Assembly: GCA_016215335.1 (NCBI GenBank)
Contig: JACRKE010000031.1
Location: 1-25,807 of the forward strand
Length of the DNA: 25,807 nucleotides
DNA from: Candidatus Vogelbacteria bacterium
GTDB taxonomy: Bacteria; Patescibacteriota; Minisyncoccia; Phycocordibacterales; JACRKE01
Direction of reading: 5' to 3'
The notes beneath the pieces were generated by a model. It saw nothing but the letters and a program-made list of their open reading frames with translations, had not been told where the DNA came from and made no database searches. Positions 9,358 through 15,501 of the stretch are shown piece by piece (the first letter of the stretch is position 1; each line of letters starts with the position of its first letter). The translations under genes were made by a program, and so were the position numbers.

Positions 9358-9727
9358 CTCCGCGGCCAGGATTCGAACCTGGGACCAACTCCTTACACTT
9401 ATTCCACTGTTACTAGTGGGGTGGACTATATCATCTTCCTCTTGGGAAGCGAGGCGCTTCGTCCCGCCTATGGCGGGACTACTCCCTTACGGGATAGTCT
9501 CTACACCTGCCAGACTGTCTGAAAACTGACCCTGAAGCCTTGCTTCCAGATGGATTTGGAAGCAAGGCTCCTCATTTTCTGACAGTCCAGATTGGTTCGG
9601 GATTGCCCACCTCGCCATCGGCGGAGTTAGGGTTTCCCCGAGTTCACCTCGTTTTTCAAACTCGATTGCTCGAGTAAGCTGCAATTTACTTTACAGGGAG
9701 CCGCTCTACCAGCTGAGCTACCGCGGA
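9358..9727 (-). tRNA. tRNA gene interrupted by a group I intron in the anticodon loop. The most consistent reading is tRNA-Asn(GUU); 5' exon 9727..9693, 3' exon 9395..9358.
   Basis: The 5' exon reads TCCGCGG-TA-GCTC-AGCTGGTA-GAGC-G-GCTCC-CUGU. The 3' exon reads UAA-GGAGT-TGGTC-CCAGG-TTCGAAT-CCTGG-CCGCGGA-G(CC). Together they give a 73-nt cloverleaf with a perfect 7-bp acceptor stem, D-stem, anticodon stem with G27-U43, and T-arm GGTTCGAATCC. Canonical group I junctions (5' exon ending in U, intron ending in G) give the anticodon loop CUGUUAA, i.e. GUU. P1 is then C32-G, U33-A, G34-C, U35.G plus two intron A-U pairs. The contiguous 5' text 'CUGUAAA' mimics a Tyr(GUA) loop, but that junction would place A at -1. 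Confidence 0.6.
9396..9692 (-). ncRNA. Group I self-splicing intron (~297 nt) inside the tRNA anticodon loop; no homing-endonuclease ORF.
   Basis: The conserved core elements are present in order in the RNA sense. P-like is 'AAAUUGCAGC'. Q-like is 'GGGCAAUCC', with GCAA pairing UUGC to form P4. R-like is 'GUGUAGAGACUAUCC' (consensus GUUCACAGACUAAA). S-like is 'AAGAUGAUAUAGUCCAC' (consensus AAGAUAUAGUCC), with P7 as AGACUA/UAGUC. The intron ends in G (omegaG, 9396) and is preceded by an exon U (9693). The only ORF inside (65 aa) has no homing-endonuclease features. Confidence 0.65.
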
Positions 9728-10296: not shown

Positions 10297-11088
10297 ATGG
10301 AATCAGTCAAAATAGACACAGAAGACGGGTTCATTTTGGATGCGGATTATTATCCCGGAACTGGATCTTTGGGCGTAATTTATACCCATGGAGCAACATC
10401 ACATCGCGGCCGCGAGCGTTTTTTTGAGCGGGCTGCGCGCGAACTTTCATCTAAGGGCGTTCACTGTCTCTTCTTCGATTTCAGAGGGCATGGTAAGAGC
10501 GGGGGAGATTCGGCCAAGGATTTCAAACTTTCGGGAGTGTTGAAAGACCTGGCAGCAGCAGTTGATTTTCTTAAGTCAAAGGGTATGAAAACTCTCGGAC
10601 TTGCCGGCGCATCTTTCGGAGCCAGTGTCTCTTCCATATATGCTTCTAAAAACAACGGTACAGTCGGTGCATTAATGCTTGTAAATCCGGTATTGAATTT
10701 CCATACCGCGTTTTTTGAACCCACCACCGAGAATTCGCGCATGCTGTTTAGCGCCGTGCACAAGACTCTAGAGACAGAAGAGTATTTCGAAATGCCATGG
10801 AACAATTTTAGGTTGGGGAGACCCGCTTTTGAGGAACTGCGCATGAAGCTTCCTGAACACGATCCTATTTTATCACTTGATTCTTACAAAGGCCCTCTCC
10901 TTATTGTTCACGGCAACAAAGACAGAACGATTGACCACAATGAGACATTGGATTATTTCAACAGAATAAAAAGCAATAACAAAAGATTCATCACCATAAA
11001 TGGCGCAGACCATAGTTTCCTTGGTGAGCCCGGCCAGACAGAGGTAACTGACATTGCAATAAAGTTTTTCTCGGATAATCTATCCTAG
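10297..11088 (+). CDS. Alpha/beta-fold hydrolase.
   Basis: 263 aa. Nucleophile elbow 'GASFG' (GxSxG), an HG-like 'YTHGATSH' near the N-terminus, and a C-terminal 'GADHSF' catalytic His region. Length and motif order are typical of the alpha/beta hydrolase superfamily. Confidence 0.7.
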   Translation: MESVKIDTEDGFILDADYYPGTGSLGVIYTHGATSHRGRERFFERAARELSSKGVHCLFFDFRGHGKSGGDSAKDFKLSGVLKDLAAAVDFLKSKGMKTLGLAGASFGASVSSIYASKNNGTVGALMLVNPVLNFHTAFFEPTTENSRMLFSAVHKTLETEEYFEMPWNNFRLGRPAFEELRMKLPEHDPILSLDSYKGPLLIVHGNKDRTIDHNETLDYFNRIKSNNKRFITINGADHSFLGEPGQTEVTDIAIKFFSDNLS

Positions 11089-11112
11089 GTGGATACCTAA
11101 TACACTATAGTC

Positions 11113-11985
11113 ATGCAACACAATCTCACGAAGGAGCCCGTACTTGAAAAACATAGTTTAACGCAACACACATTGCGTTATATATTGCTACCGTTTTTAA
11201 ACTACCTAATTCCAAAAGAAACTCTAATACGAGGTATAAGTAAACTATCTGATGCCGGAGAACAGGCCATCTCTCGCTCCGGCTCGAGTCACGCCATGGA
11301 GTCTTTCTATGATCGCGGAAAAGACAAAAAGAATATATCCGCGAAAGCGCGAGAATATATCTCGTATCACGTCTTAAACGCGACCAAATCAACTCGCAAC
11401 AGACTTAAGATTGTCGAGAATGCTATTGCTCGTGAGCTTGTAGAGAGAGAGGCTTCTGGTCTAAACACAACGATCGTAACTCTCGGCGGTGGTACATGTC
11501 GATCGTTAATCGATGTTATGGATTATCTTGTAGAGAATAAGGAGCGTCCAAAATTGCATATAGTAAACATTGACTTAGATGCGACAGCTTTAGAGCGTGC
11601 AAAAGTTATAACGGATGAGAAAAAACATGGAGAGCATTTCAAATGGGTCAGAGGCAATGCAGTTGACGCACTTTCGTTTGTTCCAAAGCAGAGTGTTAAT
11701 ATTGTAGAGCTCATAGGGCTTTTAGAGTACCTTAATAAGGATGACGCATTAAATGTTATAAAAACAGCTTACGGCCTTTTGGGCGATGGGGGACTGCTTG
11801 TTGCCGCTAATGTGAGACCAAATGACGAGAGAAGATTCTATGAAAGAATCGGCTGGCCAACAATGCATTATAGGACCAAAGAGGAATTTGTTGATCTCAT
11901 TAGAAGTGCCGGCTTTAACGCCTCAAACATTAAAATAACAGTTGAGCCTCTTAAGATGCATAATATAGCTCTAGTTAGGAAATAA
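11113..11985 (+). CDS. Class I SAM-dependent methyltransferase.
   Basis: 290 aa. Motif I-like 'VTLGGGTCRSL' and acidic motif II 'VNIDLD'. The substrate is unknown, and the true start may be further downstream. Confidence 0.6.
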   Translation: MQHNLTKEPVLEKHSLTQHTLRYILLPFLNYLIPKETLIRGISKLSDAGEQAISRSGSSHAMESFYDRGKDKKNISAKAREYISYHVLNATKSTRNRLKIVENAIARELVEREASGLNTTIVTLGGGTCRSLIDVMDYLVENKERPKLHIVNIDLDATALERAKVITDEKKHGEHFKWVRGNAVDALSFVPKQSVNIVELIGLLEYLNKDDALNVIKTAYGLLGDGGLLVAANVRPNDERRFYERIGWPTMHYRTKEEFVDLIRSAGFNASNIKITVEPLKMHNIALVRK

Positions 11986-11999
11986 TCTATTTCGAATAA

Positions 12000-13631
12000 C
12001 TATTCAGGCTGAATGGTTGGCACAGTGGAACCACGTCTGCGTGCGTCTGCCACGAAATCATCATCGCTCGGTCCCTTGTGGGGCATAGAGAACTCATCCC
12101 CCGTAAACTTTGTGTAAAGACTCATTCCGTTTAATGTTGTGCCGAATATGCCAGCGTACCCGGCTGTCGCGTTGCAGAAAAAGAAATTCTTGAATGGCGT
12201 CTCCATTGGCAATCTCTTTGGTCCTATCTGGAATGGGGTACATGGCTCGCCGTATGATGTTCCGTTCGGTGCGTTCACCCACTCTTCGTTGGTTGTTGGG
12301 CTTCCTACAACTTTGACTACGATGTGCTCTCGAATGTCTGGTATGAAGTGTTTCTCGACTAGGTCAAGTAGATTCTCTGCAAGCTCCATCTTTTTCGCTT
12401 CATACGCCTTGTAATCTCTATCACGCAGATCTTTCCAGTCTGCATATTCTGTGTAAGTGCCTATTTCCATAATCTGATGACCGTCAGGTGCGACACCGGG
12501 TTCGCTGCTGTGATGGGTCGGCATTGAAATAAAGAAGAAAGGTTTGCTGAAATCGCCAGCAGTCTGATCCTTCCAGATCTGATTCATGCTCCACTGTTCC
12601 ATGTGCCAAATATTGCCATTAGTTAGATTGTACTTTTCGTAATCGAAATCCTTGAGTCCCAAATACATCATTATGTTCGATCCGGAATAGTCGTAAGCCA
12701 ATTTTTTACGGTAAGACTTATTGAATTTATCGAGCCCGATTATTTGAGCCGCTTTTTGAGGGTCCATGTTACATACTATTGTTCGGGCCGCAAACTTTCT
12801 TCCTTCTTCTGTTTCAACGCCGGTGACACGATTGCCCGACGTTTCTATTTTTGTGACTTTGCTTTTGTAGAAAATATGACACCCTCGATGATCGGTAATA
12901 GATTCTGCTATTGAATCAAAGTAATACTTGTAATGTTTGGTCGGATAGTATGCGCCTGTATTGTAACCGCAAAAAAGTCCTACATACGAAAATATAGAAA
13001 GCTTCTCGGGAGGCAACATGAAGTCAGCGGCATTTGCAGAGAGCACTGCCTGCGCTTCTTTGCTCAATTTACATTCATCGTATACGTCCTGCAGGGTGCT
13101 GTTTTTGTACTTAAGCAGTGTAAAATATCGCCAACCCTTTGTGATGTATTCCCACCACCTTATTCTCTTGTCCGGAAGTCTTAGAAGTTCTTCTCGAATC
13201 TTCTGCATTATATGCACAAACTTGTTAACTTGTTCTCGATTGTCCGGATAGGCCTTTTCTATATTATCCACTAGATTCTCAAATCCGTATGGGATACCGA
13301 CTATCTTTCCATCCGGCATGCTCATACGATCGTATCCGTTCGGATCGAACAATTCAAAGGTGATTTTTTTGTTAAGGCCGATTTTTTTTAAAAATTCGTA
13401 AATTCTGCCCCCTTGCCCGCTTGGCATTAGAGCCGGACCGCACCCCCAAATATAGTGTACTTGAGCGCAAAAATAGAAATCCCCCCATTTGAAAGAATGA
13501 GCGTAGCCCCCGGGAATATCATGGGCTTCGAGCATGCAAACTTTCTTGCCGGCATTCGCAAGGAGCGCTGCTGCTGTTAAAGCTGAATTACCGGTTCCGA
13601 TGAAGAGATAGTCGTATTTGTAGTCGTCCAT
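12000..13631 (-). CDS. FAD/NAD(P)-dependent oxidoreductase, phytoene-desaturase (CrtI)/amine-oxidase superfamily.
   Basis: The N-terminal dinucleotide-binding fold is 'DYLFIGTGNSALTAAALLANAGKKVCMLEAHDIPGGYAHSF' (GxGxxG ... E ... GG). Length is about 543 aa from ATG 13631. The ORF-track start at 13670 is TTG, and its extra 13 aa 'MKFVLFSLYWVKK' are probably not translated. Confidence 0.7.
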   Translation of the reverse strand: MDDYKYDYLFIGTGNSALTAAALLANAGKKVCMLEAHDIPGGYAHSFKWGDFYFCAQVHYIWGCGPALMPSGQGGRIYEFLKKIGLNKKITFELFDPNGYDRMSMPDGKIVGIPYGFENLVDNIEKAYPDNREQVNKFVHIMQKIREELLRLPDKRIRWWEYITKGWRYFTLLKYKNSTLQDVYDECKLSKEAQAVLSANAADFMLPPEKLSIFSYVGLFCGYNTGAYYPTKHYKYYFDSIAESITDHRGCHIFYKSKVTKIETSGNRVTGVETEEGRKFAARTIVCNMDPQKAAQIIGLDKFNKSYRKKLAYDYSGSNIMMYLGLKDFDYEKYNLTNGNIWHMEQWSMNQIWKDQTAGDFSKPFFFISMPTHHSSEPGVAPDGHQIMEIGTYTEYADWKDLRDRDYKAYEAKKMELAENLLDLVEKHFIPDIREHIVVKVVGSPTTNEEWVNAPNGTSYGEPCTPFQIGPKRLPMETPFKNFFFCNATAGYAGIFGTTLNGMSLYTKFTGDEFSMPHKGPSDDDFVADARRRGSTVPTIQPE

Positions 13632-13794
13632 TTTTTTGACCCAGTATAAGCTGAAGAGAACAAATTTCAAAGTGTGACTGTTTTTTCTCGGAATCAGAAT
13701 AATTCCACATCTTTCGTTATGCTCCTTTTATTTGAGATGCTACAATTCTTAGCGAGTACATAAATATATAGTCCAATCATACAGAAACATATTC

Positions 13795-15501
13795 ATGCCG
13801 GATTACACAGTTACAATACCCTTCGCACTTTCACTTATTAATATAGTTTTGGGTATTTTCATTTTGTATGGCAGACGAGACTGGTCCACGCGTGTTTACG
13901 CTTTATTCGTCGTCTTCGTGGCTCTGTGGTGTTTCTCTATAGGGATGATTTTCTATTTGGAATCCAGTCCGCTCGTAATGTTTGCCATAAACCTGAACTA
14001 CATAAGCGCCGTGGGTACGGTCCTTCTGTTCCTCATCTTTACTAAACTTTTTCCACGTAAAACATGGAATCTAAAAACAATTTCAATCGTATCACTGCCG
14101 ATTTTTTTAATAGCGGCGCTCATACTACTTGATCCCAGCTTGATTATAAAGTCTTTTGTTTCGCGTACCGATTTTAGGATAGAGTATATGACATATGCCA
14201 TATACACGTTTGTTGTGTACACATATATTCTGTCCGCCTTTTACTCCCTTTACAGCTCATATCGCGAGAGCAAAGACTATACGGAGAAAAGTCAAACCAT
14301 CGTGGTTGCTCTTGGAACCACTTGCGGCTATCTCGTACTTCTTATTCCGAATATAATCCTGCCTTGGTTTCTTGACTATTCATACATCTGGATCGGACCC
14401 ATTGCCAGTTTGACAATGACGACTGCCATCGGTTACGCAATGAGTAAACACCATCTGTTTGACATTAAAGTCATAGCGACTGAACTGTTTACGTTCCTGC
14501 TTTGGCTCATTTTGCTCATAAGAGTATTGACGTCCGATAGCTATGGAGATGCGCTGGTGAACGGTTTGATATTAGTATTCGCAATATTCTTCGGCATACT
14601 GCTTATTAAGAGTGTGATAAGAGAGGTGAAGAACAGGGAGAAGATTGAAGGTCTGGCCACCGAGCTTGCGGTGGCGAATGATGAACTGAACTCGGCCAAT
14701 GTGCGCCTGAAAGGACTTGATAAACAAAAATCCGAATTTGTTTCCATAGCATCTCATCAGTTGAGAAGTCCTCTTACCGCGATTAAAGGATACGTTTCCA
14801 TGTTACTCGAAGGAACGCCGTCATACGGAGATTTGAAGGCAGGCAAGATTACCGAAGCCGGTTATGAAGCTCTGGATCGAGTCTTTAAGTCAGCAAATGC
14901 GCTTGTTCTTATTATAGAAGACCTTTTGAATATTTCGAGGATAGAGCAGGGTAGAATGCAGTACACAATGACTGACTTTAATCTTCGGGATATGGTCAAA
15001 GAGATCGCGGACAATATGACTATTGTTGCCCGTGAGCACAAACTTGATCTCACATTCGGTTCAAACGACGATGGCAATTATACGGTGAATGCGGACTCGG
15101 GAAAGATAAGGCAGGTCATTGGAAATATTATAGACAATTCAATCAAATACACACCAAGTGGTTCTGTGAAGATATCCTTACACCACAGCGACGAAGGCTC
15201 TGTTGTGGTCGCGGTAAAAGATACCGGAATCGGCATACCGGCTAGTGTAATTGGAACGTTATTCCAGAAATTCACTCGTTCGGAGGGAGCCGGCAAAGTA
15301 AATGTTACAGGCACAGGCATAGGCCTTTACATCGCTCAAGAAATTATGAAAGCTCACGGTGGCAAAATTTGGATCGAGTCGCCCGGCGAAGGAAAAGGGT
15401 CCACATTCTTTATTGAGTTTATAAAACAAAAAACACAAATGACAGAAAACACAAAAACCACACAAAGCACCAATGTCCAAAGCTCAGACAAATTTGTTTA
15501 A
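13795..15501 (+). CDS. Sensor histidine kinase with an N-terminal multi-pass (about 8-9 TM) membrane sensor domain.
   Basis: HisKA H-box 'SIASHQLRSPLTAIKGY'. HATPase_c N/G boxes 'IGNIIDNSIKYT', 'DTGIGI' and 'GTGIGLYIAQ'. The first ~250 aa consist of consecutive hydrophobic helices. No response regulator is encoded adjacent to it. Confidence 0.8.
   Translation: MPDYTVTIPFALSLINIVLGIFILYGRRDWSTRVYALFVVFVALWCFSIGMIFYLESSPLVMFAINLNYISAVGTVLLFLIFTKLFPRKTWNLKTISIVSLPIFLIAALILLDPSLIIKSFVSRTDFRIEYMTYAIYTFVVYTYILSAFYSLYSSYRESKDYTEKSQTIVVALGTTCGYLVLLIPNIILPWFLDYSYIWIGPIASLTMTTAIGYAMSKHHLFDIKVIATELFTFLLWLILLIRVLTSDSYGDALVNGLILVFAIFFGILLIKSVIREVKNREKIEGLATELAVANDELNSANVRLKGLDKQKSEFVSIASHQLRSPLTAIKGYVSMLLEGTPSYGDLKAGKITEAGYEALDRVFKSANALVLIIEDLLNISRIEQGRMQYTMTDFNLRDMVKEIADNMTIVAREHKLDLTFGSNDDGNYTVNADSGKIRQVIGNIIDNSIKYTPSGSVKISLHHSDEGSVVVAVKDTGIGIPASVIGTLFQKFTRSEGAGKVNVTGTGIGLYIAQEIMKAHGGKIWIESPGEGKGSTFFIEFIKQKTQMTENTKTTQSTNVQSSDKFV

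Follow-up and report, generated by a model that had tools for sequence, protein, structure and literature searches.

A tRNA-Asn(GUU) gene on a Candidatus Vogelbacteria contig, very probably interrupted at 35/36 by a subgroup IA group I intron

The stretch of DNA analysed here, which we call the window, covers 25,807 nt of the Candidatus Vogelbacteria contig JACRKE010000031.1 (positions 1-25,807). It carries an interrupted tRNA-Asn(GUU) gene at 9727-9358, on the minus strand, which gives a 73-nt tRNA after removal of a 297-nt group I intron. A first examination of the letters without database searches (the sequence-only reading) had proposed a 370-nt locus with about 297 nt to be removed from the anticodon loop, and these coordinates and lengths proved exact, the strand being the minus strand. 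With intron detection (-i), ARAGORN called a tRNA-Asn(gtt) whose intron has 297 nt and lies at 35/36, whether it was given the sub-region or the whole window; without -i it reported no tRNA in the whole window. All coordinates below are window positions, and all features of the interrupted gene are on the minus strand.

The 5' exon (UCCGCGGUAGCUCAGCUGGUAGAGCGGCUCCCUGU, 9693-9727) has 35 nt, i.e., tRNA positions 1-35 in the ARAGORN -i call, and comprises the acceptor strand UCCGCGG, the D arm, the anticodon stem strand GCUCC, and the loop nucleotides CUGU. Its last nucleotide, U35, is the U(-1) of the 5' splice site. The 38-nt 3' exon of the same call (UAAGGAGUUGGUCCCAGGUUCGAAUCCUGGCCGCGGAG, 9358-9395) starts with UAAGG and provides U36, A37 and A38, the anticodon stem strand GGAGU, a 5-nt variable loop, the T arm, the acceptor strand CCGCGGA, and the discriminator G73 at 9358. 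The discriminator G is followed by CCU (GAG-CCU), and CCA is incompletely encoded. The predicted spliced junction joins GGCUCCCUGU to UAAGGAGU at 35/36, and ARAGORN folded both the spliced and the unspliced sequence into a cloverleaf with anticodon GUU after intron removal.

Exon identity to intron-less tRNA-Asn genes is the boundary criterion of Nakagawa et al. 2026. The predicted spliced tRNA is identical at 73/73 positions to the intron-less tRNA-Asn(GUU) genes of two metagenome contigs, L245 (2626-2699) and L255 (6378-6451), with 35/35 identical positions in the 5' exon and 38/38 in the 3' exon. The sequence-only reading had suggested such a comparison with relatives, and it came out in favour of the proposed junction. 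When the spliced sequence was compared with the tRNAs of Escherichia coli, tRNA-Asn was the only end-to-end match (72.6%); this comparison is weakly informative, as the local score of tRNA-Lys exceeds that of tRNA-Asn. No sigma-70-like promoter came out of a scan for promoters and terminators, whose sole "terminator" was the P6 hairpin of the intron read on the wrong strand. The 220 nt located 3' of the tRNA showed no significant structure (z = -1.35).

The intron (9396-9692, 297 nt) starts with AAAG and ends with AAGUG. The Rfam group I model RF00028 (Intron_gpI), proposed as a check by the sequence-only reading, matched over its full length (model positions 1-253, window 9403-9702) with 53.9 bits, exceeding the gathering score of 50. 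The E-value was 9.6e-13 when 901 bases were searched and 2.8e-11 for the window as a whole. An Rfam scan of the whole window with gathering thresholds and default fast filters gave no match. This miss is a filter loss and not a sign of a weak match, since the score was 53.9 bits once the filters were relaxed. The intron alone folded at -122.9 kcal/mol (z = -7.9 relative to 200 shuffles), and its unconstrained minimum free energy (MFE) fold contained P2, P3, P4, P5, P6, P7.1, P7.2, P8 and P9. The R and S strings listed in the sequence-only reading (GUGUAGAGACUAUCC and AAGAUGAUAUAGUCC) are both present. We found no homing endonuclease open reading frame (ORF) in the intron, in agreement with that reading: the longest internal ORF has 65 aa (TTG start), and a 112-aa ORF overlapping the 5' part of the intron had no match in a Pfam search.

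We interpret the locus as a Patescibacteria tRNA-Asn(GUU) gene into which a 297-nt ribozyme of subgroup IA is inserted at 35/36, a reading to which we give a probability of roughly 93%. The predicted splice sites have all the elements first noted in the sequence, i.e., U(-1), omega-G, and a 6-bp P1 (CUGU.AA/UUGCAG). The 5' strand of P1 (9691-9696, read from the sequence) consists of exon CUGU and intron AA, with the 5' splice site after the U at 9693. The 3' strand is the internal guide sequence UUGCAG (9679-9684), whose G forms a wobble pair with U(-1), i.e., U35.G. The last intron nucleotide, omega-G (9396), marks the 3' splice site and is a G in all 71 members of the family aligned here.

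Under this interpretation, exons and intron would be transcribed as one precursor RNA, in which the guide UUGCAG would pair with exon CUGU and intron AA to form P1, with U35 in the U.G wobble. Splicing would start with an attack after U35 (9693) by a free guanosine that is bound in P7. Omega-G (9396) would then occupy the guanosine site, and the freed 3'-OH of U35 would attack after omega-G, joining CUGU to UAA in the anticodon loop CUGUUAA. Maturation would presumably also need 3' end processing and the CCA-adding enzyme, because CCA is incompletely encoded.

To evaluate the fold we aligned the intron with 70 distinct genome-derived homologues (71 sequences) under a hand-drawn structure that includes the P3/P7 pseudoknot. 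The sample of homologues was arbitrary, and the window's own genome and its nearest relative lay outside it. Standard pairs were formed in 92.7% of the cells of the alignment, against 35-44% when the 3' partners were slid by 1-3 columns. Changes on both sides (compensatory) were found in 42 of the 63 pairs. The covariation score was 0.452, compared with 0.134 in shuffles, and 0/500 shuffles reached the observed value. The P1 pairs made by the exon were almost invariant: C-G in 71/71 sequences, U-A in 70/71, G-C in 71/71 and U.G in 71/71. The GCAG motif was found near the 5' end of the intron in 69 of the 71 sequences. After a 2-nt shift of the loci called as tRNA-Thr, all 71 had CTGT before the intron, G at its end and TAA after it, and all mature tRNAs started with U1.

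This 2-nt shift touches the most serious competitor of the Asn junction, an intron at 33/34 that would leave a mature tRNA-Thr(UGU). The 5' exon would then end with CU, the 3' exon would start with UGUAAGG, and GUAAAG and AAUAAG would be the first and last letters of the intron. A U(-1), here U33, and a G at the intron end are present in this register too. Among the homologous loci, 55 were called Thr(tgt) 33/34 by ARAGORN -i and 16 Asn(gtt) 35/36, and in the literature tFind makes the same Thr(UGU) 33/34 call (PMC13011429). The ambiguity is systematic because the G-U-G at the intron's 3' end is conserved. Yet, in the Thr register U33 pairs with an A in Watson-Crick fashion, whereas U35 forms the splice-site U.G wobble in 71/71 sequences. 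It is the product of the Asn junction, moreover, that matches intron-less tRNA-Asn(GUU) genes at 73/73 positions. U1-A72 and G73 in the tRNA body fit Asn rather than Thr identity. Finally, sequencing of the in vitro spliced products of a homologue gave 35/36 (PMC13011429). We therefore regard the Thr junction as highly improbable.

In the sequence-only reading, the 5' exon text was seen to mimic a Tyr loop. The text CUGUAAA (9690-9696) is indeed there and resembles the anticodon loop of a tRNA-Tyr(GUA), but the competing junction to be taken seriously is Thr(UGU) at 33/34. To give tRNA-Tyr with the loop CUGUAAA, the intron would have to be removed 1 nt further 3', which requires an A at -1 and a U at the intron 3' end and so breaks both splice-site rules of group I introns. 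Bacterial tRNA-Tyr has a long variable arm (class II), whereas the variable loop here has 5 nt. The AA that follows CUGU is accounted for by its pairing with UU in P1. A few homologues did receive Tyr calls from ARAGORN, but these put the 3' exon inside P9. The chance that the product is tRNA-Tyr is, in our estimate, negligible. On the homologues, ARAGORN -i also produced sporadic calls as Tyr, His, Ser, Pro and Phe, arising from a misplaced 3' exon. The insertion at 35/36 with anticodon GUU, as originally proposed, thus agrees with the ARAGORN -i call, the U35.G wobble and the identity to intron-less genes.

Covariation backed the core helices from P3 to P8, with the exception of P7. P2 (ACUCGA-GCAA-UCGAGU, 9660-9675) is closed by a GNRA loop, with 96.4% of cells paired and compensatory changes in 6/6 pairs. 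The 5' strand of P3 (CGAGGUG, 9645-9651) pairs with CGCCUCG (9450-9456), its 3' strand in the covariation alignment, with 99.6% of cells paired and compensatory changes in 5/7 pairs. In the P4-P5 domain (9597-9641), seen in both the covariation alignment and the MFE fold, P4 encloses the P5-P5a hairpin (9606-9632; P5 89.7% paired). P4 itself (UCGGGG/UCCCGA, 9636-9641 and 9597-9602) is 100% paired with compensatory changes in 5/6 pairs, e.g., UCGGGG/UCCCGA versus UGCUGG/UCAGCA across the family. The P6 domain (9505-9596) has 92 nt and consists of a 2-bp P6 and a long, near-perfect extension hairpin. Its base helices are 100% and 90.3% paired, and P6a shows compensatory changes in 6/6 pairs. No other P6 domain in the sample is as long (the median of the family is 29 nt), and this length puts the intron, with 297 nt, above the sample median of 240 nt. 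A check for repeats gave a single occurrence of the P6 extension in the window.

On the 3' side of the core, the 5' strand of P7 (GACUA, 9495-9499) lies inside the R element GUGUAGAGACUAUCC and is complementary to 9424-9428. It is followed by P7.1 (UCCC-GUAA-GGGA, 9483-9494), present in the MFE fold, and by P7.2 (GUCCCGCC-AUA-GGCGGGAC, 9461-9479), also in the MFE fold and with compensatory changes in 8/8 pairs. P8 (CUUCC-CAAGA-GGAAG, 9435-9449) has 95.5% of cells paired and compensatory changes in 3/5 pairs. J8/7 (AUGAUA) and the 3' strand of P7 (UAGUC, the S element) occupy 9424-9434 and fit the RF00028 consensus GAAGAUAUAGUC. P9 (CCACU-AGUAAC-AGUGG, 9404-9419) is in the MFE fold and shows compensatory changes in 4/5 pairs, with only 69.5% of cells paired in a region where the MAFFT alignment is rough.

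Compared with the RF00028 consensus, P7.1 and P7.2 (9461-9494) appear as 37 extra nt inserted between the 5' strand of P7 and the 3' strand of P3. In the established classification of group I introns, extra helices at this place are the mark of subgroup IA. Because P7.1 and P7.2 are present in the predicted fold, we assign the intron to subgroup IA and not to IC3. The sequence-only reading had set the intron beside the bacterial introns of tRNA-Leu, tRNA-fMet, tRNA-Ile and tRNA-Arg; the comparison holds for membership in group I but not for the lineage, the window intron being assigned to IA.

The locus could also be a decaying, non-splicing tRNA pseudogene, with a second, intact tRNA-Asn elsewhere in the genome doing the work. 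Intron-less alleles with identical exons do occur in related organisms, the rest of the genome lies outside the window, and the P6 extension is unusually long. Against decay, no core helix is broken or out of step with the consensus of the family, the P7 strands, J8/7, U(-1) and omega-G all have their canonical form, and the exons have no substitutions relative to the intron-less alleles. Furthermore, copies with and without intron for the same anticodon rarely occur in one genome (PMC13011429). We consider a relic very unlikely, and keep the interpretation given above.

Some points weigh against this interpretation. P7 (invariant, 71/71) and parts of both P7.1 and J8/7 were fixed by the pattern used to retrieve the homologues, so that covariation is silent on the catalytic P7. 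For P10 we found at most 1-2 bp and do not claim it. Self-splicing of this copy without protein help is something we infer from its homology to members studied by experiment. The window alone cannot reveal a second tRNA-Asn gene, and selection for splicing is an assumption. The assignment to Patescibacteria comes from synteny and 30-75% protein identity to contigs of metagenome-assembled genomes (MAGs), not from a marker-gene phylogeny, and some MAG titles are unreliable.

The housekeeping genes of the window, i.e., fmt, def, priA, murA, mreB, holB, frr, rseP and HPF, are short and divergent. A tblastn search showed that the block formed by tRNA-Asn, HPF, (a peptidyl-prolyl isomerase), fmt, def, priA, murA and mreB has the same order and orientation in locus L171. 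The block was partly matched in L198, L203, L206, L151, L190 and further intron-bearing MAGs named Paceibacteria, Parcubacteria or Kaiserbacteria. MreB is 72-75% identical to that of the MAG loci. The same block is found beside an intron-less tRNA-Asn in six metagenome contigs. We conclude from this shared gene order that the window is part of a Patescibacteria chromosome, and that its orthologous locus has the intron in some organisms and lacks it in others.

About 6 kb between tRNA-Asn and HPF (10297-15501) are absent from otherwise syntenic loci such as L171. They encode an alpha/beta hydrolase, a methyltransferase, an FAD amine-oxidase-like oxidoreductase and a seven-transmembrane histidine kinase. 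Because these genes are absent from the syntenic Patescibacteria loci, the region is a lineage-specific insertion. Elsewhere in the window, an 803-aa ORF (133-2544, minus strand) matches the Major Vault Protein shoulder domain (PF11978, E = 6e-22) and a vault repeat (PF17795). A 540-aa ORF (5292-6914, plus strand) has no Pfam domain and gave several overlapping tblastn matches to one region of locus L192, which suggests an internally repetitive protein common to these bacteria.

The sequence-only reading had considered tRNA-Asn at 35/36 an uncommon host and site. This did not hold: it is the dominant type of tRNA intron in Patescibacteria, and the lineage is present in at least 120 species genomes. 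A narrower, lineage-specific pattern, applied to one genome per species, gave at least 120 loci, and among the loci listed nearly all titles were those of Patescibacteria MAGs. The groups among these listed matches include Parcubacteria/Paceibacteria, Saccharibacteria, Kaiser-, Nomura-, Falkow-, Uhr- and Doudnabacteria, and others. The nearest introns among the matches listed, at four loci, are about 77% identical to the window intron in the core columns. A search of the 120 listed genome loci for tRNA-Asn or tRNA-Thr genes without an intron returned 18 tRNAs, none of them tRNA-Asn.

The listed matches also include a few outliers, from Omnitrophota, from an isolate of Hydrogeniiclostridium and from a MAG that bears the label Woesearchaeota. 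The first two correspond to intron patterns outside Patescibacteria, in an Omnitrophota MAG (L127) and in a cultured isolate of Bacillota (L240, Hydrogeniiclostridium mannosilyticum, NZ_QLYR01000020.1), both without an ARAGORN call. The third, on a 2.1-kb contig of a "Candidatus Woesearchaeota archaeon" MAG (L205, CAZHMB010000061.1), is again an interrupted tRNA-Asn of bacterial type; this contig is probably a mis-binned one from Patescibacteria. A comparable case of a "Pacearchaeota" bin is noted by Williams 2020 (bioRxiv 10.1101/2020.01.27.920355).

Some members of the lineage depart from the common form. A Campbellbacteria MAG (L149, 1165-1258) has an intron of this lineage in a tRNA-Asp(GUC) gene, again at 35/36, with CCUGU before the intron, GUG at its end and CAC after it. 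With the shared CUGU target, the lineage could occupy different tRNAs with GUN anticodons. Two near-identical introns (L217, 5719-6062; L236, 745-1088) have an AT-rich insertion of about 100 nt near the 5' end, before the guide, which places GCAG beyond the first 70 nt.

Intron-less genes came from a metagenome scan with a pattern that takes both interrupted and uninterrupted forms of the tRNA 5' half. Since the pattern prescribes the bases with which the intron starts, interrupted genes are underrepresented among its matches. The scan gave 18 intron-less tRNA-Asn(gtt) genes, including the two with exons 100% identical to those of the window, and one interrupted relative. One of the two, L255, comes from a fairly close relative: a neighbouring oxidoreductase is 77% identical at the protein level to the FAD amine-oxidase-like oxidoreductase of the window, the tRNA-Asn exons are 100% identical, and there is no intron.

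Distances between intron cores correlated with distances between exons (Mantel r = 0.42, 0/2000 permutations). Because the intron diverged in step with its host tRNA, descent appears to be mainly vertical, and the data fit such inheritance with occasional loss or gain. Some syntenic orthologues of the tRNA-Asn locus have the intron and others lack it. This is the basis for a further idea, namely that the intron is still mobile in Patescibacteria without an endonuclease of its own, via reverse splicing or an endonuclease acting in trans. We find this improbable. It is more speculative still that GTP-dependent splicing might limit the supply of tRNA-Asn, beside a conserved ribosome-hibernation gene.

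The locus is an annotation trap. Under default tRNA and Rfam pipelines the genome would seem to lack a tRNA-Asn, and tools that do allow for introns may take such genes for tRNA-Thr(UGU), a problem described by Nakagawa et al. 2026. It also raises a mild question, that of an endonuclease-less intron being present or absent among close Patescibacteria at a tRNA with otherwise identical exons.

Among known systems, the IA introns of phages (T4 td, nrdB and related) share the IA core (AGAGACUA ... GAURAKAUAGUCC) and the helices after P7. They lie in protein-coding genes, often with homing endonucleases. A loose IA-core pattern applied to viral contigs of IMG/VR gave at least 120 loci; these are generic phage IA introns, uninformative on the lineage studied here, and none of the 120 listed fits the narrower lineage pattern. 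A blastn search of 50,697 phage records with the whole locus found nothing.

The classical tRNA introns of bacteria and plastids, in tRNA-Leu(UAA) at 34/35, tRNA-fMet at 33/34, and tRNA-Ile(CAU) and tRNA-Arg(CCU) at 36/37, resemble the window intron in that most have no ORF. They differ in subgroup (IC3, without P7.1/P7.2), in host tRNAs and sites, and in their occurrence, mainly in Cyanobacteriota and Pseudomonadota. An IC3 type or a cyanobacterial origin of the window intron was considered and is ruled out by P7.1/P7.2 and by the synteny with Patescibacteria. The number of intron-bearing tRNA types in bacteria has since been raised from the four classical ones to 21 (Williams 2020, bioRxiv 10.1101/2020.01.27.920355).

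The closest match is the Patescibacteria "Asn.4Ug" class, a class of Williams 2020 with the intron after the fourth loop nucleotide, in the form in which it is cited by Nakagawa et al. (PMC13011429). Of 95 complete Patescibacteria genomes analysed by these authors, 15 had a group I intron at 35/36 of tRNA-Asn(GUU) (Nakagawa et al. 2026, mSystems, PMC13011429). They showed that one such tRNA-Asn intron self-splices in vitro at 35/36 and that changing omega-G to C abolishes this. With subgroup-specific covariance models they placed 25 of the 28 introns found at 35/36 in IA; most introns at this site lack endonuclease genes, and ARAGORN and tFind often miscall the interrupted genes as tRNA-Thr(UGU) 33/34 (PMC13011429). 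Asn 35/36 introns were also reported from Nitrospirota and Bipolaricaulota, and three introns at 35/36 from Cyanobacteriota (PMC13011429). The Paceibacteria intron of GCA_016699245.1, from the supplement of that study, has visible homology to the window intron from P7.1 through the 3' strand of P3, P8, J8/7 and P9.

The class to which the window intron belongs is already catalogued and biochemically validated, and the locus adds nothing new on mechanism. The two agree in host tRNA, site, U(-1) and omega-G, GCAG guide, IA architecture with P7.1/P7.2, phylum, chromosomal neighbourhood, and in the endonuclease gene being mostly missing. From sequence comparison, no functional difference is evident; the window intron differs from the class in its periphery only, i.e., in its long P6, its short P1 loop and its greater length.

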